A stretch of DNA of 64,000 nucleotides from an uncultured Gammaproteobacteria bacterium (GTDB taxonomy: Bacteria > Pseudomonadota > Gammaproteobacteria > JABCZS01), in assembly GCA_963848305.1 (NCBI GenBank), contig CAWKDC010000001.1:22490-86489 (forward strand), given 5' to 3'. How positions within the stretch are numbered: the first letter of the stretch is position 1; every line of letters begins with the position of its first letter. Made by a program: the position numbers and the translations under genes. The notes beneath the pieces were generated by a model. It ran no database searches and was not told the origin of the DNA. It saw only the letters and a list, made by a program, of their open reading frames with translations. Shown one piece after another: positions 306 through 63,676 of this stretch.

Positions 306-344
306 AAACTCCATTTTAGCCCATTTCGGGCAGTTCTACGGTTT

Positions 345-365
345 GATGTAGAGGCGGCTTTACGC
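345..365. repeat. REP-like palindromic unit (half of a REPIN-type pair), family GTAGAGGCGGCTTTA(C/G)GC
   Basis: gatgtagaggcggctttacgc plus a spacer ccatttgg closely matches the REPIN at 14721-14798. Confidence 0.5.
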
Positions 366-512
366 TACCATTTGGTCCGTCGGTTGATGGATAAACTCGC
401 CGCTACAACATCAAACGGGGAGGTCCCGCCGTCAAGCGGTTGCGGCAAATAGGAACGACGTTATCTGGCCCTGAATGCGTTTTGCCCTAAACCGTCGTAA
501 AATGGTAAGAGA

Positions 513-5360: not shown

Positions 5361-7866
5361 ATGGGATACATTTGCATTCACGGACATTTTTACCAGCCGC
5401 CGCGCGAGAATCCCTGGCTCGAAGCCGTTGAGCTTCAGGACTCAGCGCGTCCCTATCACGATTGGAATGAACGGGTCGATGCTGAATGTTACACGCCCAA
5501 CGCCAGCGCTCGGATTCTGGACGAGGAAAAGCGCATTGTCAGCATTGTGAACAACTACGCCAAGATCAGCTTCAATTTCGGCCCTACTTTGCTTCCTGGA
5601 TGGAGTCAAACGATCCGGCCGTCTATCGCGCCGTTCTGCGACGCCGATGCCCAGAGCGCCAAGAACTTTTCCGGGCACGGTTCCGCCCTTGCCCAGGCGT
5701 ACAACCACATGATCATGCCCCTGGCGAACGAGCGCGACAAATACACGCAAGTATTCTGGGGGATTCGCGACTTTGAACACCGATTTGGACGGCGGCCGGA
5801 AGGGATGTGGCTCCCGGAGACCGCCGTGGACGTCGCCACTCTGGAGGTCCTGGCCGAGCAGGGCATCAAGTTCACCATTCTTGCCCCTAACCAGGCCCGC
5901 CGCGGAAGGAAGATCGGCGGTCGCAATTGGAAGGATCTCAGCAACAGTTCCGTTGACCCGACCATGGTTTACCGTCACCGCCTGCCCTCGGGGAAGAACA
6001 TTAACCTTTTCTTCTACGATGGTCCGATCTCCCGCGCCATAGCGTTTGAGGGCGTGCTGGACAACGGCCAGCAGTTTGCGCGAGCGGCTTCTGGGAGCCT
6101 TTTCCGAAGACACGCGGCCCTGGCCGGAACTCGTGCATATCGCCACGGATGGGGAGACCTACGGCCACCATCACAAATACGGTGAAATGGCCTTGGCCTA
6201 TGCCTTGGATTACATCGAGTCCAACGGCCTGGCCGAGCTCATCAATTACGGCCTGTATCAGGAACGGCATCCTCCGACCCACGAAGTCGAGATATTTGAC
6301 AACAGCTCCTGGAGTTGCGTTCACGGAGTCGAACGCTGGCGCAGCAACTGCGGCTGCAACTCCGGCGGACATGCGGGCTGGAACCAGGAGTGGCGCGCCC
6401 CGCTGCGCGCGGCTCTGGATTGGCTGCGCGACACGCTGGCCCCTCTTTACGAAGAGAAAGCCAAGCAGTTGCTGAAGGATCCGTGGTCGGCGCGCAATGA
6501 TTACATTGATGTCGTCCTTGACCGCTCCGCGGAGACCCGGGAGGCGTTTCTCGCCAAGCACGCCCTTCGGCAGCTTGATGACGGCCGAGAAAACGACCGT
6601 GTGGAAGCTGCTGGAGCTTCAGCGGCACGCCATGTTGATGTACACCAGTTGCGGTTGGTTCTTCGATGAATTGTCGGGAATCGAAACCGTCCAGGTGATT
6701 CAATACGCCGGCCGCGCCGCCCAACTGGCGGAGGAGCTTTTCGGCAATCCCCCGCAAAGCCTCTTCATCGAAAAGCTGAGCCAGGCCAAGAGCAATATTC
6801 CCGAGCATGGAGATGGCGGCCGCATCTACAAGAAGTTCGTCCAGCCCGCCTTTGTTGACTTGCGCAAGGTCGCTGCTCACTACGCCATCAGGTCTCTTTT
6901 TGAAGCGTACCAGCCGGACACCCAAATTTACTGTTACAAAGTGGAGCGCCAAGCCGACGCTTAACCTCGAAAAGGAGAACAGCCACGCGCAGAAGCTCGC
7001 GGGCGGGCTTGGCGAGGTTTACCTCGGAGGTCACCCAGGAGTCGGCCGTCCTGGGCTTCGCCGCAATTGAATGTGGCGATTACAACCCCACGGGCGGTGT
7101 CCTGAAGGCCACGAACCCCGAGGCTTATGAGGCCGTAAGCGCTGCACTGAAGGAGCCCTTTCTGCGGGGAGACCTGAAGGAGGCATGCCGGCTCCTGGAA
7201 CAAAATCTCGATGGCGAGCCTTATGCGCTCGCGGTGATCTTTCGTGACGAGCAAGAAAGAATCCTCAAACGGATCATCGAGACAGAGTGGGCGGACGCCG
7301 ATGCGGCTTTTGACAGCCTTTACCCCCACCTGCTGTCCACGATGCGAACGCTCGCGAGGGTGGGAGGATCCTTGATGATTCCCCGAGCTTTCTCTGCCGC
7401 TGCCGAATTTGTTTTGAATACCCGGCTCCGGCGCGCGTTGGGGAGCGACCAGTTGGATTTTGAGGGCATCCGGAGTCTCATCGGCGATGCCGAGGGTGCC
7501 AATGTGGCGCTCGACGTGCCGACCCTGGAATACACGCTCCGGACAAAGCTCGAACGGATGGCGGAGAGCTTACGAGCCGACCCTACCAATGTTGAGCTTC
7601 TCCAGGGCTTGATTCCGCCGTGGGCATGGCTCGTTCGCTGCCGCTGGAGGTGAACCTCGCGAAGATTCAGAACATTTGTTACGAGTTGCTGCAAACCACC
7701 TACAATGACTTTCAGGTAAAAGGGCGAAGAAGGAGGCAAAAACGCCAGCGCATGGATCGAGCATTTTCGTGCTCTGGCTGAAAAACTCTCCCTGCGTGTC
7801 GCGGAGGAGCCCCGTTCTTTAGAGCCTGACCTGACCGGGGCTAAAGGACAGCAGGTGCAGGGCTGA
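5361..7866 (+). CDS. glycoside hydrolase family 57 protein (about 830 aa, DUF3536-type C-terminus), with several apparent frameshifts
   Basis: N-terminus CIHGHFYQPPRENPWLE, ATDGETYGHHHKYGE; the product is pieced together from ORFs 5361.., 6046.., 6497.., 7009.. and a tail to 7866. Confidence 0.7.
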
Positions 7867-7893
7867 AGCCCGGCGCGGTCTTGGTAGGAGGCG

Positions 7894-10770
7894 ATGGCCA
7901 CACTGCGGATTCCTCTGGCGACGTACCGGCTCCAGTTCAACGCGCAGTTTCGCTTCGAGCACGCGCGGGCGCTGGTGGATTACCTTGCACCAGCTTGGGG
8001 TGACGGATATCTACTCTTCGCCTCTGCTGCAAGCGCGGCGCGGAAGTCTGCACGGCTACGACGTCACCGATCCCTCCCACATCAATAGTGAAATTGGGAG
8101 CGAGCAGGACCTCGAGGCCCTGTCGGCGAAGCTCCAGGAACATCAAATGGGCCTCCTCCTGGACATCGTCCCGAACCACATGGCCGCCGGAAGCGAGAAT
8201 CCCTGGTGGATGGATGTCCTGGAAGACGGCCCCGGCTCTGCCTACGCTTCGTTTTTTGATATCGACTGGCACCCTCCCCGCATGATGCTCCAGAACAAAG
8301 TTCTTCTGCCGATCCTCCGCCACCCTTACGCCCAAGCGCTTGAGAACCAGGAACTCAAACTGGTTTTCGACCAGGGTGGCTTTTTCATCCAGTGTTTCGA
8401 TGCCAAGCTGCCCGTCGCGCCCAAAACCTACCTTCTGGTCTTGCAGCATCGGCTGGGCGAGTTGCAGCACAAGCTGGGCCTCCGACCACCCGGCGTTTCG
8501 GGAATTGGGAGGCATCTTCGCCGCCGCGACAAACCTTCCCGAGCGCGTTGCTCTTTCCACCGAAATGGCGGGGGAAAGACGCATGCAAAGGGAGGCCCTG
8601 AAGGAAAGGCTCTGGAAGCTGTATCAAGACTCGTCCGAAGTGCGGACCTTCGTCGATGAGAACGTGCGCATCTTCAATGGCCGGAAGAGGGACCCGGCCA
8701 GCTTTATGTTGCTTGACCGTTTGCTGGCCGAGCAGGCTTATGTGCTCTCATACTGGCTCTCCGCCAATGACGAAATCAACTACCGGCGATTTTTTACCAT
8801 CAATAATTTAGTGGGAGTCCGCGTGGAAGATCCCCTGGTGTTTGAAGCCACGCACGCCGTGATCCTGCGCCTTATCGAAAGAGGATTGGTGACGGGATTG
8901 AGGATCGACCACGTGGACGGCCTCCGAGACCCTCACGGTTATCTGCGCAGACTCCAGGAGCGCGTCGGAGGCAGTGCCGGAGACGATTCTCATCCGCCGT
9001 TTTATGTCCTCGTGGAAAAGATTCTCGCCTATGGCGAAAAGCTACCTCGCGAATGGCCGATCTGCGGGGCGACCGGCTATGCCTCCCTCAATGCTCTCAA
9101 TGGGCTTTTCGTCGACCTCCGACGGGTGCAAGAAACTCCACCAGATCTACGAATCGTTTATCGGCGCCACGATCCGGTATGAGGATCTGGTGTATGAAAA
9201 AAAGAAGGAGGTGATGGAAAGCCTCCTCGCCGTGGAGATGCGTTCACTGGGCCATTACCTGGCAATCCTGGCGGAACAGGACCGGTATGCGCGCGACTCT
9301 GCCCGCGGTGACCTTGCCAACGCTCTCACCGAGACCACCGCTTGCTTTCCCGTTTACCGGAGCTATATTCGGAGCTTCTCGGTGAGCGCGGAGGAACGCC
9401 GATACATTGAGAAGGCACTCGAGTGCGCTCGACGGCGGAATCCCGCGTCTAGCTTCGCAATGCTTTGATTTTGTCGCGACGTCCTTTTGTTGCGGGAAAG
9501 AGGCCATGTACAGCCCGAGCAGCGGGAAGCCAGACTGGCTTTTATTATGCGCTGGCAGCAGTTCACCGGTCCGATCATGGCCAAAGGGCTGGAGGATTCT
9601 GCCCTTTACGTTTACTACCCCCTGAGTTCGCTGAACGAGGTCGGCGGAGCTCCCGATTCCTCGGGAGTGCCGGCCGCCGAATTTCATGTATTCTGCCGCA
9701 ACCGGCAGAAGCACGGCCACACTCTGAATGCCACCTCCACCCACGACACCAAGCGCGCCGAAGATGTGCGCGCACGAATTAACGTGCTTTCCGAAGTTCC
9801 CGAAGAGTGGGATACGGCCCTCCAAAGCTGGACACGACGCAACATGGCCGAAGAAGATCCCGGTCGAACGGGCAAAAGGTCCCCGATCCTAACGAGGAAG
9901 TACCTCGTTTACCAGACCATGCTGGGGGCTTGGCCGCTGGACAAAGGGCGACATTTCCGCCTTCCGAAAACGGCTCCAGGATTACATGGTGAAAGCGGTG
10001 CGGGAGGCGAATGGTCCACACAGATTGGAGCCGCCCCAACGTCCGCCACGAGCAGGCGCTGATCCACTTCATTAAATCCATCACTCAGCCGTCGGAAGAC
10101 AACAAGTTTTTGCCCGACTTCCTTCGCCTGCAGCGGCAAGTTGCCTACTGCGGGGCGCTCAATTCCCTGGCCCAGCTTTTGCTCAAAATCACCGATTCCA
10201 GGGGTTCCGGATTTTTACCAAGGCTCTGAGCTTTGGGACTTCCGCCTGGTTGATCCTGATAACCGGGGTCCGGTGGACTTCGAAAAGCGGGTGCGCCTGC
10301 TGGCCGAGCTCCAGCGAGCAGGAGGAACAACGCGGCCGTTTGGACCTCATCAGGGACCTCCTTGACCACTGGCAGGACGGGCGCATCAAACTCTTTGTGA
10401 CCTCGACAGCCCTCAACTTTCGCCGGGATCACGCCCAAGCTGTTCCTGAAGGGCGATTACCAGCCATTGCACGGCGACGGGGCCCAAAAAAGAGAAGGTC
10501 TTTGCGTTTATGAGGCGTACCGAGGACGCCTGGGCGGTCACCGCCGTGCCAAGATTCGTCACGAAGCTGGCTTCCCGCCGGGCAGCCTCCCACGGGAGAA
10601 GGCGTATGGTCAGCCGGTACGGTGCTTCTACCTAAGGGGGCGCCGACGGATTGGGTCAATGTGCTGACCAGGCGAAAGCCTGAAGGTTCGCACTTCAAAG
10701 CAGGGAGCGCCCCTTGCCGCTGGCGGAGGTATTTGGTAAGTTTCCTGTGGCACTGCTTACAAGCGGGTAG
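7894..10770 (+). CDS. treY: malto-oligosyltrehalose synthase (TreY), with many apparent frameshifts
   Basis: Start [24 protein letters not shown] (TreY hallmark), [45 protein letters not shown]-terminus ...FPVALLTSG; the ORF fragments sit in at least seven frames. Confidence 0.75.
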
Positions 10771-12561: not shown

Positions 12562-12564
12562 GAA

Positions 12565-12680
12565 TTTTCGATTGTCGATTGCCGATTGTCGACTGATGAT
12601 TGCCATCAAGTCCGCGAAGCGGGCTGATCGCCATCGGCATTCGATAAATCGGCAATCGAAAATCGGCAATCGACAATGAT
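12565..12680. repeat. long imperfect palindrome with CGATTG/CAATCG sub-repeats between treS and the next gene
   Basis: ttttcgattgtcgattgccgattgtcgac ... gtcgacaatcg-type arms (ggcaatcgaaaatcggcaatcgacaatgat) around a GC-rich centre. Confidence 0.5.
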
Positions 12681-13964
12681 ATGGCTGTGACTGACGAATC
12701 CCTTCTTACCGACGATTTCCTGCGACAGATCACCGCCGCAGGGGAAGTGGACATCCTTGTCGGCGTCCCCACCTTGAATAATCACGACACCATCGCGCGT
12801 GTCATCAGCGCCATTCGCGTGGGTTTCGTCAAGTACTTCCCGAGGGAAAGGGCCGCTCTGGTCAATGTGGATGGAGGGTCCAAGGATGGAACACAGGAGA
12901 TTGTAAGGAGCACAGCCGCCCCCGATTTCCGGGCCTTTCTGGCCTCCAGTCCGCTCCGCACCATGCACACGCTGACCACGTCGTACGGCGCGATGCAGGG
13001 AAAAGGGGGCGCCCTGCATGTGATCCTGGCAACCGCCGAGTTGTTGCGCGCCAAGGTATGCGCCATCGTTTCTCCGGACCTGGAAAGCCTGACGCCGGAG
13101 TGGATCGAAGCCTTGACGCGGCCGATTTACCGGGAGGGATTCGACTTTCTTGCCCCGATTTACCAGCGCCACAGGTTCGATGGGTTGTTGATCAGTCACA
13201 TCCTTTCTCCCCTCGTGGCCGCGGCCTACGGCTGCGAAATCGAGGAGCCCCTGGGCGGGGAATTGGCGTTCTCGGGCCGGCTGGCTTCCCATTATTTGAG
13301 CCAGGATGCGTGGCAGTTGGACCTGATGCGCTCCGCGCCCGAAATCTGGATGGTCACCACGGCTCTGGTGGGAGAGTACCGGCTGTGCCAGGCCTTTCTG
13401 GGCCCCAAGGTGCATGCGGCAAATCCGGCGAGTCCGGACCTTGCCGTTACCATCCAACAAGTTGTAGGAGCGCTCTTCAGTTGCCTCGAAGCCCACCAGT
13501 CCTACTGGATGACTCACGAAGGAATCCGGAGCGTTCCCGCCTTTGGATTCCAGTATGACCTGGACCTTCCACCCATCCGCGTCAACCGCAAGCGGATGCT
13601 CAACACGTTTCTGAACGGAGTAGCGGAACTCGCCTCAATCCTTGAAGCGGCCCTTTCTCCTCAGACCTTGCAGCAGATTCAAGCGATCGCGAAACTCGAC
13701 GGCGAAGGTTTCTCGTTTCCCGACGATCTCTGGGTCAAGACCGTCTATGAATTCGCCGGCGCCTTTCACCGCTCGGTGATCAATCGCGATCATTTGCTGC
13801 AAGCCTTGACACCGCTGTACCTCGGCCGAATCAACTCCTTTCTTTCAGAAAATCACAGGTCGAGCGCCACGGTAGCCGGGCAAAGGATCAAGAAGCTTCG
13901 TAGCCAGTTCGATAGCTTTGAAGCCCTATTTGGGGGAACACTGGAACGCCCAGAAGTGAGGTGA
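12681..13964 (+). CDS. glycosyltransferase-like protein of unknown specificity (GT-A-like N-terminus)
   Basis: An intact 427-aa ORF, DILVGVPTLNNHDTIARVISAI...VNVDGGSKDGT; its stop overlaps the next gene start (ATGATCTATGG), which suggests an operon with treS. Confidence 0.5.
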   Translation: MAVTDESLLTDDFLRQITAAGEVDILVGVPTLNNHDTIARVISAIRVGFVKYFPRERAALVNVDGGSKDGTQEIVRSTAAPDFRAFLASSPLRTMHTLTTSYGAMQGKGGALHVILATAELLRAKVCAIVSPDLESLTPEWIEALTRPIYREGFDFLAPIYQRHRFDGLLISHILSPLVAAAYGCEIEEPLGGELAFSGRLASHYLSQDAWQLDLMRSAPEIWMVTTALVGEYRLCQAFLGPKVHAANPASPDLAVTIQQVVGALFSCLEAHQSYWMTHEGIRSVPAFGFQYDLDLPPIRVNRKRMLNTFLNGVAELASILEAALSPQTLQQIQAIAKLDGEGFSFPDDLWVKTVYEFAGAFHRSVINRDHLLQALTPLYLGRINSFLSENHRSSATVAGQRIKKLRSQFDSFEALFGGTLERPEVR

Positions 13965-14720: not shown

Positions 14721-14798
14721 GACGTAGAGGCGGCTTTAGGCCGCCATTTGCCGTGGTTTTACGGTCGCGACATGGCGGCGTAAAGCCGCCTCTACGTC
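14721..14798. repeat. REPIN-like inverted REP pair
   Basis: gacgtagaggcggctttaggccgcc ... 28-bp spacer ... ggcggcgtaaagccgcctctacgtc; it lies between convergent genes. Confidence 0.6.
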
Positions 14799-17107: not shown

Positions 17108-17283
17108 AGATCTTCCTCCGAGGATATTAACCGTTGGCCTCGTTTCTGGTAAAGGAGCGGCAAGCGAGAAATGCGCCGTTCCCATCAAGCTTACGGCCGG
17201 TAAAAGGAGGTTCACTCCCCGGCACGAAATCTACTCTGCCTTAAGCCGCAAAGTCAAGTACAGGCGAGTTCACCTCGCCATAT

Positions 17284-17308
17284 GGCGGCGTAGAGCCGCC
17301 TCTACGTC
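17284..17308. repeat. REP unit (ggcggcgtagagccgcctctacgtc) that served as the insertion target of the MITE-like element
   Basis: Same family as 14774-14798; its 3' 10 bp cctctacgtc is duplicated on the far side of the element. Confidence 0.55.
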
Positions 17309-17514
17309 CAACACAGTTCACTTAGCTGTCATCAGGGATTAAACAAATCTAATTACGTGCGAAGCACCTTGGAGTGCGAGTGGCAGCAGCCACCGCCTTC
17401 CGCCCGAGATTCATACGGGACTCGCACGAATGAAAGGCGGTGGCTGCTGCCACTCGCACTCCAAGGTGCTTCGCACGAGCCCATGTCAAAATGCGCGCTA
17501 AGTGAACAGTGTTG
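17309..17514. mobile_element. 206-bp MITE-like non-autonomous element, copy 1: 17-bp terminal inverted repeats, an internal 42-bp perfect-stem hairpin, a 10-bp target site duplication
   Basis: TIR caacacagttcacttagc / gctaagtgaacagtgttg; TSD cctctacgtc at 17299-17308 and 17515-17524; stem arms 17356-17397 and 17436-17477 are perfectly complementary; a near-identical copy lies at 39011-39216. Confidence 0.7.
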
Positions 17515-17579
17515 CCTCTACGTCAGAAGTTAAGCGTAGCTTCACTTCGATTGAGTTTTTGGGCGCTTCAGAGTAAGTT

Positions 17580-28157: not shown

Positions 28158-28398
28158 ACCCGCCTTCTCCGAAAAAAAATTCCGGCAGAAATTGGACTAC
28201 ATGCACAAGAACCCGGTGACGCGCGGCCTGGTGATCTCTCCCGGTGATTGGCCGTGGTCAAGCTGGAGGTTCTACTATTCACAGGATGCATCGATTCTCC
28301 GCATGGACCGGATGCGTTGAGTCCAACTTTCGAGAAGTCCCTTCGGGAGATCGCAGACTTCAAAGAGCCGGAGTCTGCCAGCCCCCGTGTCTTGCAGC
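28158..28398 (+). mobile_element. partial copy (about 240 bp, 3' end only) of the IS200/RAYT element found at 30.8-31.47 kb
   Basis: About 90% identical to 31227-31466, including the A8 tract, the DWPWSSWRFYY coding segment and the subterminal hairpin gcagact...agtctgc. Confidence 0.75.
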
Positions 28399-28540: not shown

Positions 28541-29074
28541 TCATTTCGTGATCGTCACGTCACTAACGGACTTGAGGATCAGTCGAGTCTGATACAACGT
28601 ACTGGGCGTGAACCCATAGCCTTTCCTGACGACGGTCTTGCCAGTCTTATCCGTCACTGTCAATTTGTCTGGACCGTCGAACCGTCCGACGAGCGTCGCG
28701 AATACTCGGCCTTCTGGAGGCTTAGAGGACGGGCCGATCTGCAGTCCCCACCCGTACTTCGAAAGCGCTTCGTCCAACTTCTTGAGATTCTCATCTTTCA
28801 ATAGACTGAATTCAGGGCGGTCCGAGTCTCGCACGAGGTCCGGGGAATAGAGCGCGACGGCCGCCCCTTTGTGGTCGCACTCCGCCAGGAGGACAGAAAT
28901 CTCGAATGCCGCGTAGACTTGCGTGCGAATGCGAACCATTTTCCCGCTAAAGGCCGCCGGGTTCCGAACGAGCTCGCACACCGTGGTGTCAATGGGGTTC
29001 ATAGCCGCCCTGTCGGGCAACGCACAAATTCCGAGCGCCACGATCGCCAATAGAATCGTTCTCAATGTGGACAT
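28541..29074 (-). CDS. signal-peptide protein immediately downstream of the RHS toxin domain; candidate cognate immunity protein
   Basis: MSTLRTILLAIVALGICALPDRAA signal; 177 aa; an 18-bp gap to the RHS stop on the same strand. Confidence 0.45.
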   Translation of the reverse strand: MSTLRTILLAIVALGICALPDRAAMNPIDTTVCELVRNPAAFSGKMVRIRTQVYAAFEISVLLAECDHKGAAVALYSPDLVRDSDRPEFSLLKDENLKKLDEALSKYGWGLQIGPSSKPPEGRVFATLVGRFDGPDKLTVTDKTGKTVVRKGYGFTPSTLYQTRLILKSVSDVTITK

Positions 29075-29091: not shown

Positions 29092-30879
29092 CTACTGCTG
29101 CTCCCAGGGGTCATGATAGGGCAATGGGTCAACAAAGATCTTGCCGGGATTCAGACGAGGGTACGTACCCATGATCAGATTCGATGTGCCAGCATCGTTG
29201 AAACCTCGGCCACTCGTAAAGATAGTGTAGCCGCCAGCCGAAAGACCGGACAGGCCAAGCCCTTGTGCCACCCAAGCGGACGTTTCATACCCGCGATACT
29301 CGAACGAGAAGTCCGGCAGCGGGGCCGTCGAACTCCTTGGATCGAGATTGTCCATCACGTGGGTTCCCTCGTGGCCAGCATTTATCGCCATGATGGTTTC
29401 GTTTGGATTCTTGCTCATGTCGAACGTAACTGCTGAGCCGACCGTTGCAGCAGCACCTAGCCCGCGCAGGTCGCCGGTCGTGACGGTCACTCCGTTATCA
29501 TCGCCTGCCTTGCCATAGGTCTTCAGAACTGCATCGAGCCTCGCACGCTCCTCGCTGCCCTTTCCGAAGCTGTTTCTCGCCGCTTTTATGTCGTCCAACG
29601 AATCCTTAAACTCTTTCTTGAAAGCCTTGAAATCAGCGTTACACTGTTTGTCAGATTTCTCGCAAGGGTTCTTGAAATCGTAGAGCCCGGTGGGATCGAC
29701 GCGAGTGGTGGGATTATTCCGGACATAAGCATACATATTCCAGGTCTGGGGGTCGCTGGGGTCGGCAGCGGCCAGGCCTGCCGGGTCGGGGGTGAGCCAG
29801 CGGCCGGCCAGGTCGTCATAGACCCGGTGCGGGGCCAATTTAAAATCGCCATCCCCCTCCTGAAACGCCGCCCACTCCCACTCCCATAAATTACCGGCCG
29901 TTTGCCACAACTGACCCCAGGGGTACCACAGTAAGTCCTCGGTCCAGTTCCCCAGATGGTTGGTGTCCTGGGTTGCGGAACCGAGAAAGTTGGGGTGCTG
30001 AAGATAGGTCTCGTTGTTGTCACGGGAATATGCTGCGATTTTCCGCCCCCCCGCTCGTACCTGGTCCACCCACAAGCTGCTGCCGTCGGCGTTCCCCAGC
30101 CAATCACCATTGGGAGCGAACAATGCGGACATGTTGGTCCACGGCACGGCATAGTAGACCTCTTGGCCGAAGGCATTATAAACTGCGCTGGAATTGGTTT
30201 CCCGCCCCTCGCCATCCCAGGAGAAGCTATTCGTGCCGTCACTGGTCAGATTCCCCGCGGCGTCGTAGCTGAAGCCGTCAATGCGATTCGGGTAATTGTT
30301 GTAAGTCAATACCGGGCAAGGGCCGTTCGTAGACCCGTTCATCAAGCAGGTCATGTTGCCGTAGGCGTCATAGCCAAAGGCGAGGTTATACGTGCTGTTG
30401 CCGCTCGCCTGCGCGCAAGCCAGGCGATTCACGCCGTCATAGACATACAAGGCCGAGTGGCTCATCGTGCTGTTCACCGCGTCCGTGAAAGTATAACCAA
30501 TCACGTCGCCGTTGTTGCCGCTCCCGGACGCGGACACGGGGCAGCCGGGCGGCGTACTGCCGCCGGGCAAAGAGTAATTATACCCCAGTGTATAGTACGC
30601 TCCGGGGTTGCCGCTGGTGCCCAACTGAATCTGGGTCGGCTGCATCCGGTTATTGTAGGAGTAGGTTTCCTGGCTGTTCGTGCACCCGGAACCCGCGCAG
30701 CCGTTGGTGAGACCGCTTAGCGCCCCCCAGGGAGTGTAGGCCGGCTGGCGCTCAGACACCCGTTCTTTGGTGTCTGCGATTCCCGAAGGGACGTTCTCTT
30801 CCGGCCCCGCACCGTCGAGAGTATACTCTTCTGCGCCATGCCCTTCTACCACCGCGTTTACAGTCCCGGTGAACTGCAA
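29092..30879 (-). CDS. RHS/YD-repeat protein C-terminal fragment with a variable C-terminal toxin domain carrying an HExxH motif (N-terminus lost at the IS junction)
   Basis: YD repeats (YVYDGVNRL, FGYDAYGNMT, FSYDAAGNLTSDG); RHS core end RWLTPDPAGL...NMYAYVRNNPTTRVDPTGL; about 210-aa tail with AINAGHEGTHVMD. Confidence 0.75.
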   Translation of the reverse strand: MQFTGTVNAVVEGHGAEEYTLDGAGPEENVPSGIADTKERVSERQPAYTPWGALSGLTNGCAGSGCTNSQETYSYNNRMQPTQIQLGTSGNPGAYYTLGYNYSLPGGSTPPGCPVSASGSGNNGDVIGYTFTDAVNSTMSHSALYVYDGVNRLACAQASGNSTYNLAFGYDAYGNMTCLMNGSTNGPCPVLTYNNYPNRIDGFSYDAAGNLTSDGTNSFSWDGEGRETNSSAVYNAFGQEVYYAVPWTNMSALFAPNGDWLGNADGSSLWVDQVRAGGRKIAAYSRDNNETYLQHPNFLGSATQDTNHLGNWTEDLLWYPWGQLWQTAGNLWEWEWAAFQEGDGDFKLAPHRVYDDLAGRWLTPDPAGLAAADPSDPQTWNMYAYVRNNPTTRVDPTGLYDFKNPCEKSDKQCNADFKAFKKEFKDSLDDIKAARNSFGKGSEERARLDAVLKTYGKAGDDNGVTVTTGDLRGLGAAATVGSAVTFDMSKNPNETIMAINAGHEGTHVMDNLDPRSSTAPLPDFSFEYRGYETSAWVAQGLGLSGLSAGGYTIFTSGRGFNDAGTSNLIMGTYPRLNPGKIFVDPLPYHDPWEQQ

Positions 30880-31466
30880 TTCATCACCACCAGCACCTAT
30901 CGCCGCACGCCCCTTTTCCTCTCGGATCGCTTTCGGCGCTGCTTTGTCCAGAGGCTGGAGGAGGTGCGGCAGGAATTACATTTCCTGCTCGTCGGCTGGG
31001 TTCTGATGCCCGAGCATTTTCATATGCTGATCAAGCCCGAGCCCGCCGAAACCACTCCCCTGATTATGAAGGGGCTCAAGGAGGAATCGGCCAAGCGCAT
31101 CATCAGAACACTTCGGGAAAACCTTCGGTATCCTTGGTGCCGGAAGACGCTCGCCAGGCTGCGGCTGCCCTCCACGGTTCACGATGAATCACACTACCGC
31201 CTCTGGCAGCGCCGCTTTTACCCCTTCAATGTCTTCTCCGAAAAAAAATTCCAGCAGAAATTGGACTACATGCACAACAACCCGGTGACGCGCGGGCTGG
31301 TGAGTTCCCCCGGCGACTGGCCGTGGTCAAGCTGGAGGTTCTACTATTTGCAGGATGCGTCAATTCTCCGCATGGATCGGATGCGCTGAGCTCAACTTAC
31401 CAGAAGTCCCTTCGGGAGATCGCAGACTCCAAAGAGCCGAAGTCTGCGCCAGCCCCGTGTCTGGAA
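30800..31466 (+). mobile_element. IS200/IS605-like element carrying a REP-associated tyrosine transposase (left boundary approximate)
   Basis: RAYT gene plus a subterminal hairpin cgcagactccaaagagccgaagtctgcg; the 3' 240 bp is duplicated at 28158-28398. Confidence 0.65.
30838..31389 (+). CDS. REP-associated tyrosine transposase (RAYT, IS200-like Y1 HuH transposase)
   Basis: HuH motif MPEHFHMLIKP; YRLWQRRFY; DYMHNNPVTRGLVSSPGDWPWSSWRFY, which matches the RAYT signature. Confidence 0.8.
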   Translation: MPFYHRVYSPGELQFITTSTYRRTPLFLSDRFRRCFVQRLEEVRQELHFLLVGWVLMPEHFHMLIKPEPAETTPLIMKGLKEESAKRIIRTLRENLRYPWCRKTLARLRLPSTVHDESHYRLWQRRFYPFNVFSEKKFQQKLDYMHNNPVTRGLVSSPGDWPWSSWRFYYLQDASILRMDRMR

Positions 31467-31728
31467 ATGGTTGAGTGATCTTTACAATCGTGCCTGAGAG
31501 AGCCGGCGCGGCGATCTCCGCGGCAATCTTCCCGGCTGCCAGCCTACCCATCAAGTCCTGACCGAGGCTCACGAACAACGAAAATGGAATAAGGAATTTG
31601 ACCGAGGCGCTAAGCCAAAGCCAGTAGCGGACTTGGGCGCGATTCTTGCGGAAGGCGAGCGTCAGCAGCCCCACCACAACCGCAAACACCGTTGATTGCC
31701 ACAAATGGTTCGTCACCTCAGCGATCAT
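31360..31728 (-). pseudogene. blaR1/mecR1-family sensor (peptidase M56) N-terminal remnant, truncated by the IS
   Basis: MIAEVTNHLWQSTVFAVVVGLLTLAFRKNRAQVRYWLWLSASVKFLIPF is a typical BlaR1 N-terminus; the reading frame runs into IS-derived sequence after about 87 aa. Confidence 0.6.
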
Positions 31729-39010: not shown

Positions 39011-39216
39011 CAAAACTGTTCACCTAGCTGTCGTCAGGGATTAAACGAATCTAGTTACGTGCGAAGCACCTTGGAGTGCGTGTGGCAGCAGCCACCGCCT
39101 TTCATTCGTGCGAGTTCCGTATGAATCTCGGGCGGAAGGCGGTGGCTGCTGCCACACGCACTCCAAGGTGCTTCGCACGAGCCCATGTCAAAATGCGCGC
39201 TAAGTGAAAAGTGTTG
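39011..39216. mobile_element. MITE-like element copy 2 (206 bp), inserted at the stop codon of the acyltransferase gene
   Basis: Co-linear with 17309-17514 apart from a few substitutions and an inverted 38-nt loop; TSD gggctaggcgg / gggctagccgg at 39000-39010 and 39217-39227. Confidence 0.7.
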
Positions 39217-63601: not shown

Positions 63602-63676
63602 TGGCTCCTCGGCCAGGACTCGAACCTGGAACCCTTCGGTTAACAGCCGAATGCTCTACCATTGAGCTACCGAGGA
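63602..63676 (-). tRNA. tRNA-Asn (anticodon GUU)
   Basis: 75 nt; acceptor stem UCCUCGG/CCGAGGA; D arm GCUC..GAGC; anticodon arm UUCGG-CUGUUAA-CCGAA; T arm CCAGG-UUCGAGU-CCUGG; discriminator G plus an encoded CCA. Confidence 0.85.

Follow-up and report, generated by a model that had tools for sequence, protein, structure and literature searches.

The 64-kb window, by which we mean the whole stretch of DNA analysed here, contains a RAYT-type transposase gene together with scattered palindromic repeats that begin with GTAG, and this raises the question of whether these repeats are the substrates of that transposase. The initial annotation took them to be so, as a matched RAYT-REPIN system. We favor a different reading, with a probability of roughly 85%, in which pieces of two distinct RAYT/REP systems lie in the window: system A (RAYT-A and REP-A), which is locally complete, and system B (RAYT-B and the GTAG repeat, REP-B), which is present as orphan repeats.

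The transposase gene and the GTAG repeats

The window contains one intact RAYT-A gene and a 3′ remnant with 91% identity to it:

30838..31389, + strand: RAYT-A gene, 183 aa, recognized by NF047646, Y1_Tnp and alignment to 4ER8
28164..28320, + strand: what is left of the 3′ part of a second RAYT-A copy, roughly its final 52 codons; 215 nt match 31233-31447 at 91% identity

The assignment of the 30838-31389 open reading frame to the RAYT-type transposases, made in the initial annotation, stands. Its translation includes DYMHNNPVTRGLVSSPGDWPWSS, and it matches both the NCBIfam RAYT family model NF047646 (REP_Tyr_transpos), at 120.2 bits against a cutoff of 80, and Pfam Y1_Tnp. An exact-sequence look-up of this RAYT gave no recorded match. 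Alignment to 4ER8 (E. coli TnpA_REP; E = 1.7e-9) superimposes the HUH motifs, H60-F-H62 of RAYT-A lying within PEHFHML, and places the catalytic Tyr144, within YMHNNPV, opposite Y115; the HUH motif and the tyrosine of Y---NP are both conserved among 120 RAYT-A homologs. Its family membership and catalytic motifs identify RAYT-A as a class-2 Y1 HUH transposase, presumably with the corresponding nuclease activity.

The motif GTAGAGGCGGCTTTASGCC, with no more than one mismatch, occurs four times in the window, at 348-366 (+), 14724-14742 (+), 14777-14795 (−) and 17287-17305 (−); the expectation from shuffled sequence is 0.01, and none of 100 shuffles attains four. The window thus contains a single palindromic GTAG family, as had been reported, at coordinates that were right to within about 3 nt. 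The inverted doublet (REPIN) placed at 14721-14798 is present, with 27-nt arms. The repeat is also found at the sites given as 345-365 and 17284-17308, but the description of these as single units was mistaken, and every one of the three REP-B loci in the window is an inverted doublet:

341..416, no strand: REP-B doublet whose second arm is degenerate, a variant also found in related loci L078 (93%) and L046 (87%)
14721..14798, no strand: REP-B doublet, 27-nt arms 96% complementary, 24-nt spacer, between convergent ORFs
17258..17305, no strand: compact heterodimer REP-B doublet, GTACAGGCGAGTTCACCTCGCC / GTAGAGGCGGCTCTACGCCGCC, with stems GGCGAG and GGCGGC

As single-stranded DNA the 14721-14798 doublet folds into one long hairpin (−37.3 kcal/mol, z = −11), and because it is nearly perfect a recent origin is suggested. 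The form at 17258-17305 is the most frequent one in related genomes; the right edge of this doublet carries a MITE insertion. Between 17305 and 64000 there is no REP-B unit with three or fewer mismatches. A scan of Terriglobia MAGs for REP-B returned at least 120 stretches, and among the 120 genome loci listed there are 72 doublets and 59 singlets. REP-B is a genuine GTAG-type REP/REPIN, a GC-rich palindrome with a 5′ GTAG foot that occurs as extragenic inverted doublets.

REP-A and the 716-bp cassette

A different repeat lies at the transposase gene itself:

30739..30795, − strand: REP-A unit upstream of RAYT-A, inverted, GTCCCTTCGGGA-ATCGCAGACACC..GGTGTCTG.GCGCCAGCC, folding as single-stranded DNA into two hairpins (−12 kcal/mol)
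31402..31455, + strand: REP-A unit downstream of RAYT-A, GTCCCTTCGGGAGATCGCAGACTCC..GAAGTCTGCGCCAGCC
28333..28384, + strand: REP-A unit joined to the RAYT-A remnant
30739..31455, no strand: RAYT-A cassette, 716 bp, [REP-A inverted]-gene-[REP-A], whose ends are the homology limits at three other loci

RAYT-A is thus arranged as in a REPtron, with inverted REP-A units of about 55 nt on both sides of the gene, and these units are without a GTAG foot. Each comprises a small hairpin, TCCC-TTC-GGGA, then a larger one whose base, GCGCAGAC/GTCTGCGC, is invariant and whose tip varies with covariation, and a CCAGCC tail at the 3′ end; relative to the upstream unit, the downstream unit carries a compensatory T-A to A-T stem change. 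The spacing is constant in all homologs, approximately 45 nt upstream of the ATG and 15 nt past the stop codon. There are three REP-A units within the window, all adjoining RAYT-A or its remnant. The hairpin repeats at the gene, the remnant with its repeat (28164-28384) and the 13 kb around the gene that are free of the GTAG motif had all been passed over in the initial annotation. Searched with Rfam at gathering thresholds, the whole window yields only a tRNA at 63605-63676, and neither repeat is a curated RNA family.

Comparison by blastn of the window with 258 fetched loci gives matches limited to the cassette and a few genes, so that the genome of the window is not represented there. The cassette is 91% identical to that of locus L121 and 77% identical to those of L122 and L132, and the sequence outside it is unrelated between the window and these three loci. 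The left limit of homology falls at 30738-30740 in all three; on the right, homology to L121 and L122 runs to 31454/31455, and homology to L132 stops about 20 nt short, at 31434. The neighbors of the cassette in the window are a 5′-truncated Rhs-core gene (match to TIGR03696, aa 319-399) on one side and, on the other, a short stub that resembles blaR1 and lies downstream of blaI. Among the neighboring ORFs Pfam reports nothing except BlaI at E ≤ 0.001; the Rhs assignment comes through NCBIfam TIGR03696, and the blaR1 assignment of the stub is weak (Peptidase_M56, E = 0.098).

In related metagenomes and MAGs REP-A is also a dispersed family with a covarying stem, and doublets without a gene are frequent. 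A metagenome scan returned at least 120 stretches with 186 units among the matches listed, of which 118 have no adjacent gene, 28 lie beside RAYT-A coding sequence and 40 could not be classified; gene-less copies are present in MAG loci L053 and L089 as well. For 96 of 158 units among the matches listed an inverted partner lies no more than 260 nt away, with modal spacings of 46, 54 and 101 nt. The distal triplet occurs in 14 complementary types, and 36 of the 60 non-CCC triplets are complementary, compared with a mean of 5 and a maximum of 12 in shuffles. RAYT-A genes with internal deletions are numerous in the metagenome loci; in L178, for example, aa 1-62 and 139-182 remain, and in L245 aa 1-47 and 115-182. 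In one L152 doublet both untranslated regions are kept and the ORF is gone. Contigs that bear RAYT-A homologs are mostly 1-2 kb long.

Each RAYT clade is accompanied by its own repeat

Each type of tnpA_REP has its own REP family (PMC6006769; PMC3733652), and REPINs are described in PMC5581495 as occupying extragenic space beside their RAYT. We therefore compared the flanks of RAYT genes at independent loci. At RAYT-A loci (≥71% identity) REP-A lies upstream in eight of eight, and downstream in seven of eight by pattern; in the eighth, L121, the downstream unit is recognizable by eye and has a small deletion. RAYT-B, a second RAYT clade (25–41% identical), has REP-B on both sides within 80 nt in all six loci and REP-A in none. 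REP-B is absent from within 300 nt of RAYT-A at all eight homologous loci, and likewise from the gene and the remnant in the window. Half of the association loci came from scanning for the repeat itself, an ascertainment bias that is removed in the small subset of four and four loci found through the protein, where the distribution is 4/0 versus 0/4 (Fisher p = 1/70). The associations of A with A and of B with B are exclusive between RAYT clade and repeat. Both the multi-copy status of REP-B and its flanking of RAYT-B were seen in related Terriglobia genomes rather than in the window's own, and a tblastn search of the 64-kb window with RAYT-B matches only RAYT-A and its remnant, with no RAYT-B.

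The two clades also differ in the protein positions concerned with the GTAG. The residues that read it in E. coli TnpA_REP are given in PMC6006769 as W94, Q95, E100, H101 and R104; among 120 homologs per family the corresponding residues are W-Q-P-F-[F/Y] in RAYT-A and W-[Q/E]-D-H-R in RAYT-B, and the window's own RAYT has P, F and F as the equivalents of E100, H101 and R104. The initial annotation had suggested looking for its motif beside other RAYT copies, and the pairing it proposed fails because the motif is unrelated to the sequences flanking RAYT-A copies; the matched system in the window is RAYT-A with REP-A.

In system A, if it acts as E. coli TnpA_REP and IS200/IS608 TnpA do, RAYT-A, bracketed by its two inverted REP-A copies, would bind the folded REP-A hairpin on single-stranded DNA and then cut and rejoin beside it. 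The outcome would be the spread of REP-A singlets and inverted doublets, and occasionally of the whole 716-bp cassette. System B would be represented in the window by the three orphan GTAG-tagged doublets only, its RAYT-B being elsewhere in the genome or lost.

That the window's RAYT nonetheless mobilizes the GTAGAGGCGGC doublets as a cognate RAYT-REPIN pair seems to us very improbable. The two do occur together in one 64-kb window, and on one 2.17-Mb MAG contig, CAWDSK010000006.1 (RAYT-A in L132 versus REP-B in L041 and L065), and the GTAGAGGCGGC doublet at 14721-14798 appears recent; but the GTAGAGGCGGC unit closest to RAYT-A is still 13.5 kb away, and neither the flanks of the RAYT-A loci nor the residues of the protein at the GTAG-reading positions conform to such a pairing. 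We give equally little credence to the idea that the flanking hairpins are mere cis-regulatory elements, an attenuator and a terminator, rather than transposase substrates. Their fixed positions before the ATG and after the stop would fit such a role, but neither REP-A unit is followed by a run of T, and a promoter and terminator scan of 30600-31600 found no promoter-like sites and a single terminator-like match (30631), no more than in shuffles; the hairpins are therefore not intrinsic terminators. Moreover, the two units are mutually inverted, for which a promoter/terminator pair would have no need, and the many gene-less copies and inverted doublets among the matches listed lie elsewhere.

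RAYT-A and REP-A may be currently mobile. One possibility, which we consider doubtful, is that the 716-bp cassette is an autonomous IS-like unit and that REP-A doublets are MITE-like internal-deletion derivatives of it, not products of a stationary, domesticated RAYT. The identical left boundary in four unrelated contexts and right boundary in three speak for this, as do the decayed second RAYT-A copy 3 kb from the cassette, the position of the cassette between the truncated Rhs-core gene and the blaR1-like stub, the short contigs that bear homologs, and the deleted-gene series (L178, L245) with the ORF-less L152 doublet. However, no target-site duplication is visible at the cassette, and no intact gene was seen to be split by it; its contexts come from different organisms, so that rearrangement or horizontal transfer could also account for them; P0038 is ruled out as a multi-copy element because all of its 30 contigs are one locus sampled repeatedly; and published REPtrons have not been observed moving as units (PMC6006769). 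Unlikely, and offered as speculation, is a still-mobile 716-bp REPtron that sheds REPIN-like doublets through progressive internal deletion, which would make the cassette a living intermediate, with an IS200-like insertion sequence at one extreme and, at the other, a domesticated RAYT present in single copy together with a population of REPINs. We note that the recurring boundaries, the deleted-gene series and the truncated host genes to either side of the cassette are compatible with a still-mobile REPtron.

Relationship to known systems

The two-system reading leaves the present picture of RAYT biology unchanged, and its lessons are more specific. Sharing a window is not sufficient grounds for matching a RAYT to a REP family; the gene must have the repeat at its flanks. 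Uncultured soil and peat Terriglobia contain two RAYT/REP systems that are defined by sequence and exclude each other, one of GTAG type and one of TIR type, and since they differ in protein signature at the GTAG-reading positions they form a natural pair for the study of RAYT substrate discrimination. The system A deletion series bears on the origin of REPINs from REPtrons.

GTAG-type REP/REPIN families with repeat-specific RAYTs have reportedly been described in Pseudomonas and Stenotrophomonas (Bertels and Rainey 2011, Nunvar 2010). REP-B resembles the repeats of these genera in its 5′ GTAG, 6-bp GC stem and 5-nt loop, in occurring mostly as head-to-head doublets and sometimes in arrays, and in bracketing its own RAYT-B, with several RAYT/REP systems per genome. 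It departs from them in that its doublets are typically very compact heterodimers, the gap being 4 nt, and its host phylum, Acidobacteriota (Terriglobia), is missing from the list of phyla that PMC3733652 gives for GTAG repeats.

Like the IS200/IS605 TnpA proteins, RAYT-A belongs to the Y1 HUH fold family and has hairpin ends that are presumably recognized on single-stranded DNA, and the cassette is likewise discrete and lacks a target duplication. It differs in having no tnpB and in that its ends are inverted copies of one another, whereas the LE and RE hairpins of IS200/IS605 elements differ from each other and lie on one strand. RAYT-A itself was rejected as an IS200/IS605 TnpA (NF033573, 32.6 bits against a cutoff of 55; YMHNNP, that is Y---NP, not Y---Q). 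E. coli TnpA_REP and its REPtron (4ER8; RAYT group 2, subclass 2.2) have in common with RAYT-A the HUH motif, the single tyrosine in Y---NP and a gene lying between inverted hairpin repeats that are also dispersed; unlike the E. coli REP, REP-A has no GTAG foot, RAYT-A has P, F and F/Y in place of E100, H101 and R104, and identity is low, with only two stretches aligning.

The nearest likeness is to the TIRYTs and TIRtrons, in which a RAYT-like Y1 transposase lies between long inverted repeats unrelated to GTAG REPs (PMC3733652). The acidobacterial TIRYT group comprises K. versatilis aba 3477, T. saanensis tsa 392, A. capsulatum 645 and G. mallensis 794 (PMC3733652, Di Nocera et al. 2013), and RAYT-A is related to it: a 170-aa alignment with aba 3477 shows 31% identity (E = 9e-28; sequence from Additional file 5 of PMC3733652), and the two share the signature YxHxNPVxRGLVxxPxxWxWSS. 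RAYT-A differs from the TIRYTs in having 26 aa inserted between its HUH and WQ motifs, and in its TIR, a specific multi-hairpin element that PMC3733652 does not describe. TIRYT repeats, like REP-A, can form a moderately abundant dispersed family of dimers or clusters, although in K. versatilis a repeated TIR family was found for only one of three TIRYTs (PMC3733652), while REP-A is clearly dispersed in related metagenomes and MAGs. Repeat-specific REPtrons and TIR-flanked acidobacterial RAYTs have thus already been published, and the window is an ordinary case of these known systems.

A RAYT cassette bounded by REP-A hairpins

The open reading frame at 30838-31389 was initially annotated as a RAYT (REP-associated tyrosine transposase), and this is borne out by a score of 120.2 bits against the NCBIfam equivalog REP_Tyr_transpos (cutoff 80) and by alignment with its sole match among solved structures, E. 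coli TnpA_REP (4ER8, E = 1.7e-9), which places PEHFHML over the HUH motif and Y144 over the catalytic Y115. The protein, RAYT-A, also matches Pfam Y1_Tnp and scores just 32.6 bits against the IS200 transposase model (cutoff 55); it has 978 homologs at E <= 1e-5, with source names, where available, being Terriglobia. The 100 nt 5' of the gene, reverse-complemented, align with the 70 nt 3' of it, sharing GTCCCTTCGGGA(G)ATCGCAGAC-N-CC..GG-N-GTCTG(.)CGCCAGCC, an element we call REP-A. Each gene-flanking unit folds into one small and one larger hairpin, and a T-A pair in the stem of one copy is A-T in the other, a compensatory exchange. Besides a complete RAYT-A/REP-A cassette, the window has one decayed copy:

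30838-31389 (+), RAYT-A open reading frame, 183 aa, including DYMHNNPVTRGLVSSPGDWPWSS
30739-30795 (-), upstream REP-A unit, from the alignment of the gene flanks
31402-31455 (+), downstream REP-A unit, from the same alignment
28164-28320, 3' remnant of a second RAYT-A gene copy, 91% identity over 215 nt
28333-28384, third REP-A unit, attached to the remnant

Protein look-up yielded three independent homolog loci, L121, L122 and L132, with 96%, 79% and 77% amino acid identity to RAYT-A respectively. In each of them DNA homology to the window begins at 30738-30740; its other limit is 31454-31455 for L121 and L122, and 31434 for L132. Because these limits recur amid unrelated neighbouring genes, the inverted REP-A, gene and second REP-A constitute a discrete 716-bp cassette. 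Homology predicts mobilisation by a single-strand HUH mechanism. Four further loci with full-length RAYT-A genes came from a scan for the REP-A repeat. REP-A lies upstream of the gene in 8/8 independent loci; downstream, seven have a pattern match and L121 a unit with a small deletion, recognised by eye. In L132, on a 2.17-Mb MAG contig, we also note a group II intron-like reverse-transcriptase gene (RVT_1, 7160-8596) between two direct REP-A copies (6718-6738 and 8713-8733), an arrangement that suggests insertion into or beside a REP-A hairpin.

To the left of the window cassette is an ORF with only an Rhs-associated core (TIGR03696, 45.8 bits, residues 319-399) and C-terminal tip, apparently an Rhs gene that is an orphan or has lost its 5' part; to the right, downstream of blaI (assigned through Penicillinase_R, 1.8e-24), is a 122-aa stub whose sole match, weak and N-terminal, is to M56 (E = 0.098). 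These truncated-looking neighbours and the nearby remnant fit rearrangement at cassette copies; neither a target duplication nor a split gene was seen around the window cassette. The Rhs-core ORF (29092-30738, -) is without the long N-terminal YD shell; the small ORF after it (28541-29074, -) looks secreted, and the pair, ending exactly at the cassette, looks like an orphan Rhs toxin/immunity module.

REP-A as a dispersed repeat

Scanning metagenomes for CCTTCGGGANATCGCAGAC gave at least 120 rows (576 kb) with at least 186 REP-A units among the matches listed. No RAYT-A coding sequence lies within 200 nt of 118 of these 186 units despite room for the gene, 28 adjoin coding sequence (with the gene complete in just six cases and internally deleted in many), and 40 are unclassifiable. 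An inverted partner is present within 260 nt in 96 of the 158 listed units with enough flank to judge, with modal spacings among the matches listed of 46, 54 and 101 nt; these pairs are gene-less, REPIN-like doublets (REPINs being inverted REP doublets), and the MAG loci L053 and L089 likewise carry REP-A without the gene. The base of the REP-A stem is invariant, and covariation is seen in the three distal base pairs of the large hairpin, with 14 complementary triplet types among the matches listed; 36 of the 60 listed units with a non-CCC triplet are complementary, versus a shuffle mean of 5 and maximum of 12.

One abundant doublet subfamily lies inside a unit of about 200 nt starting GGAACAAAGCGAGAATGTCTATGAAAACAAAGGA, which can occur in tandem (L053 4600-5150, L089 4300-4700, L136, L139, L144 and L146); the small hairpin of its left arm is GCGCC-GRA-GGCGC, not GTCCC-TTC-GGGAC.

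GTAG palindromes and a second RAYT clade

The GTAG-type palindromes, here REP-B, are a real repeat family: GTAGAGGCGGCTTTASGCC with no more than one mismatch has four matches in the window, at 348, 14724, 14777 (-) and 17287 (-), with 0.01 expected from shuffles, and each of the three loci, 341-416, 14721-14798 and 17258-17305, is an inverted doublet. As single-stranded DNA the 14721-14798 doublet folds into a single long hairpin (-37.3 kcal/mol, z = -11).

Other repeats lie in the window as well. A 206-nt MITE-like element, present at 17309-17514 and 39011-39216, ends in the inverted repeats CAACACAGTTCACTTAGC / GCTAAGTGAACAGTGTTG, contains a perfect 44-nt inverted repeat internally and has weak relatives in L196 and L010; its central 122 nt are inverted between the copies (97.5% identity in reverse orientation, about 84% direct). 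The direct repeat CCTCTACGTC stands on both sides of the first copy (17299-17308 and 17515-17524), which therefore inserted at the edge of a REP-B doublet, making a target duplication. At 12564-12677, adjoining the start of an ORF at 12681, is an AT-rich imperfect inverted repeat of ATTGTCGATTGCCGATT-like units (arms 12571-12601 and 12647-12677, 87% complementary).

Scanning one genome per species for GTAGAGGCGGCTNTANGCC gave at least 120 stretches (872 kb); nearly all of those listed come from MAGs of Terriglobia or Acidobacteriota, and one MAG often contributes several. Among the matches listed, 239 units were counted, arranged as 72 head-to-head doublets and 59 singlets, with a few clusters, and the usual form is the compact heterodimer GTAGAGGCGGCTTTACGCCGCC-NNNN-GGCGAGRTAAACTCGCCGCTAC also present at 17258-17305. 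Two listed contigs are binned as Alphaproteobacteria and Candidatus Udaeobacter (L022 and L056), the former with a doublet of typical Terriglobia type; mis-binning is the likeliest explanation, rather than a wider host range.

A tblastn search of the 872 kb of listed stretches with RAYT-A found only two weak matches, L108 and L118, which belong to a different clade, RAYT-B (170-174 aa; 60% identical to each other, 25-41% to RAYT-A), also above the REP_Tyr_transpos (NF047646) cutoff at 92-98 bits. Arrays of GTAG units surround both genes, and all four further RAYT-B loci found by protein look-up (L253, L256, L257 and L258; 64-84% identity) carry GTAG units on each side of the gene, no more than 80 nt away, and none carries REP-A. 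RAYT-B was not found in the window, whose three REP-B doublets are thus orphans there, members of a second system. Additional Y1/RAYT-like genes in the same MAGs and metagenomes (L253 5857-6375, L143 2764-3210, L199 5205-5633 and L225 644-1063, all -) are just 26-29% identical to RAYT-A or RAYT-B, one lying at a distance of 2.3 kb from a RAYT-B gene. It appears that at least three distinct RAYT clades occur in these Terriglobia.

Repeat assignment and published systems

Both features described in the initial annotation are real, but their proposed pairing as a matched RAYT-REPIN system is wrong. No GTAG unit in the window is nearer than 13.5 kb to the RAYT-A gene, and none lies within 300 nt of RAYT-A in any of the eight independent loci; GTAG units instead flank RAYT-B in 6/6. 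The overall split of 8/0 versus 0/6 is biased in that some loci came from scanning for the repeat itself; restricted to protein-found loci it is 4/0 versus 0/4 (Fisher p = 1/70). In E. coli TnpA_REP, W94, Q95, E100, H101 and R104 contact the GTAG guide, and these residues are conserved in subclasses with typical REPs, with E to D allowed (PMC6006769). The corresponding positions are W-[Q/E]-D-H-R in RAYT-B and W-Q-P-F-[F/Y] in RAYT-A, and both patterns are kept across 120 homologs of each family.

RAYT-like genes with long flanking TIRs unrelated to GTAG repeats have been named TIRYTs and TIRtrons by Di Nocera et al., who report a sharply defined acidobacterial group as well as TIR families that are sometimes moderately abundant and dimeric (PMC3733652). 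A member of this group, K. versatilis aba 3477, shares 31% identity with RAYT-A (E = 9e-28). Several REP families in one genome have been matched to repeat-specific REPtrons, RAYT genes with flanking REPs (PMC3733652; Quentin et al., PMC6006769), and Bertels et al. assign REPINs to RAYTs by flanking extragenic 16-mers (PMC5581495). Because TIRYTs, repeat-specific REPtrons and flank-based assignment are already published, the corrected two-system picture is a textbook case, found in a phylum that has been little studied. Acidobacteria are not listed for GTAG repeats in PMC3733652, and REP-B with RAYT-B therefore extends the known host range, if modestly.
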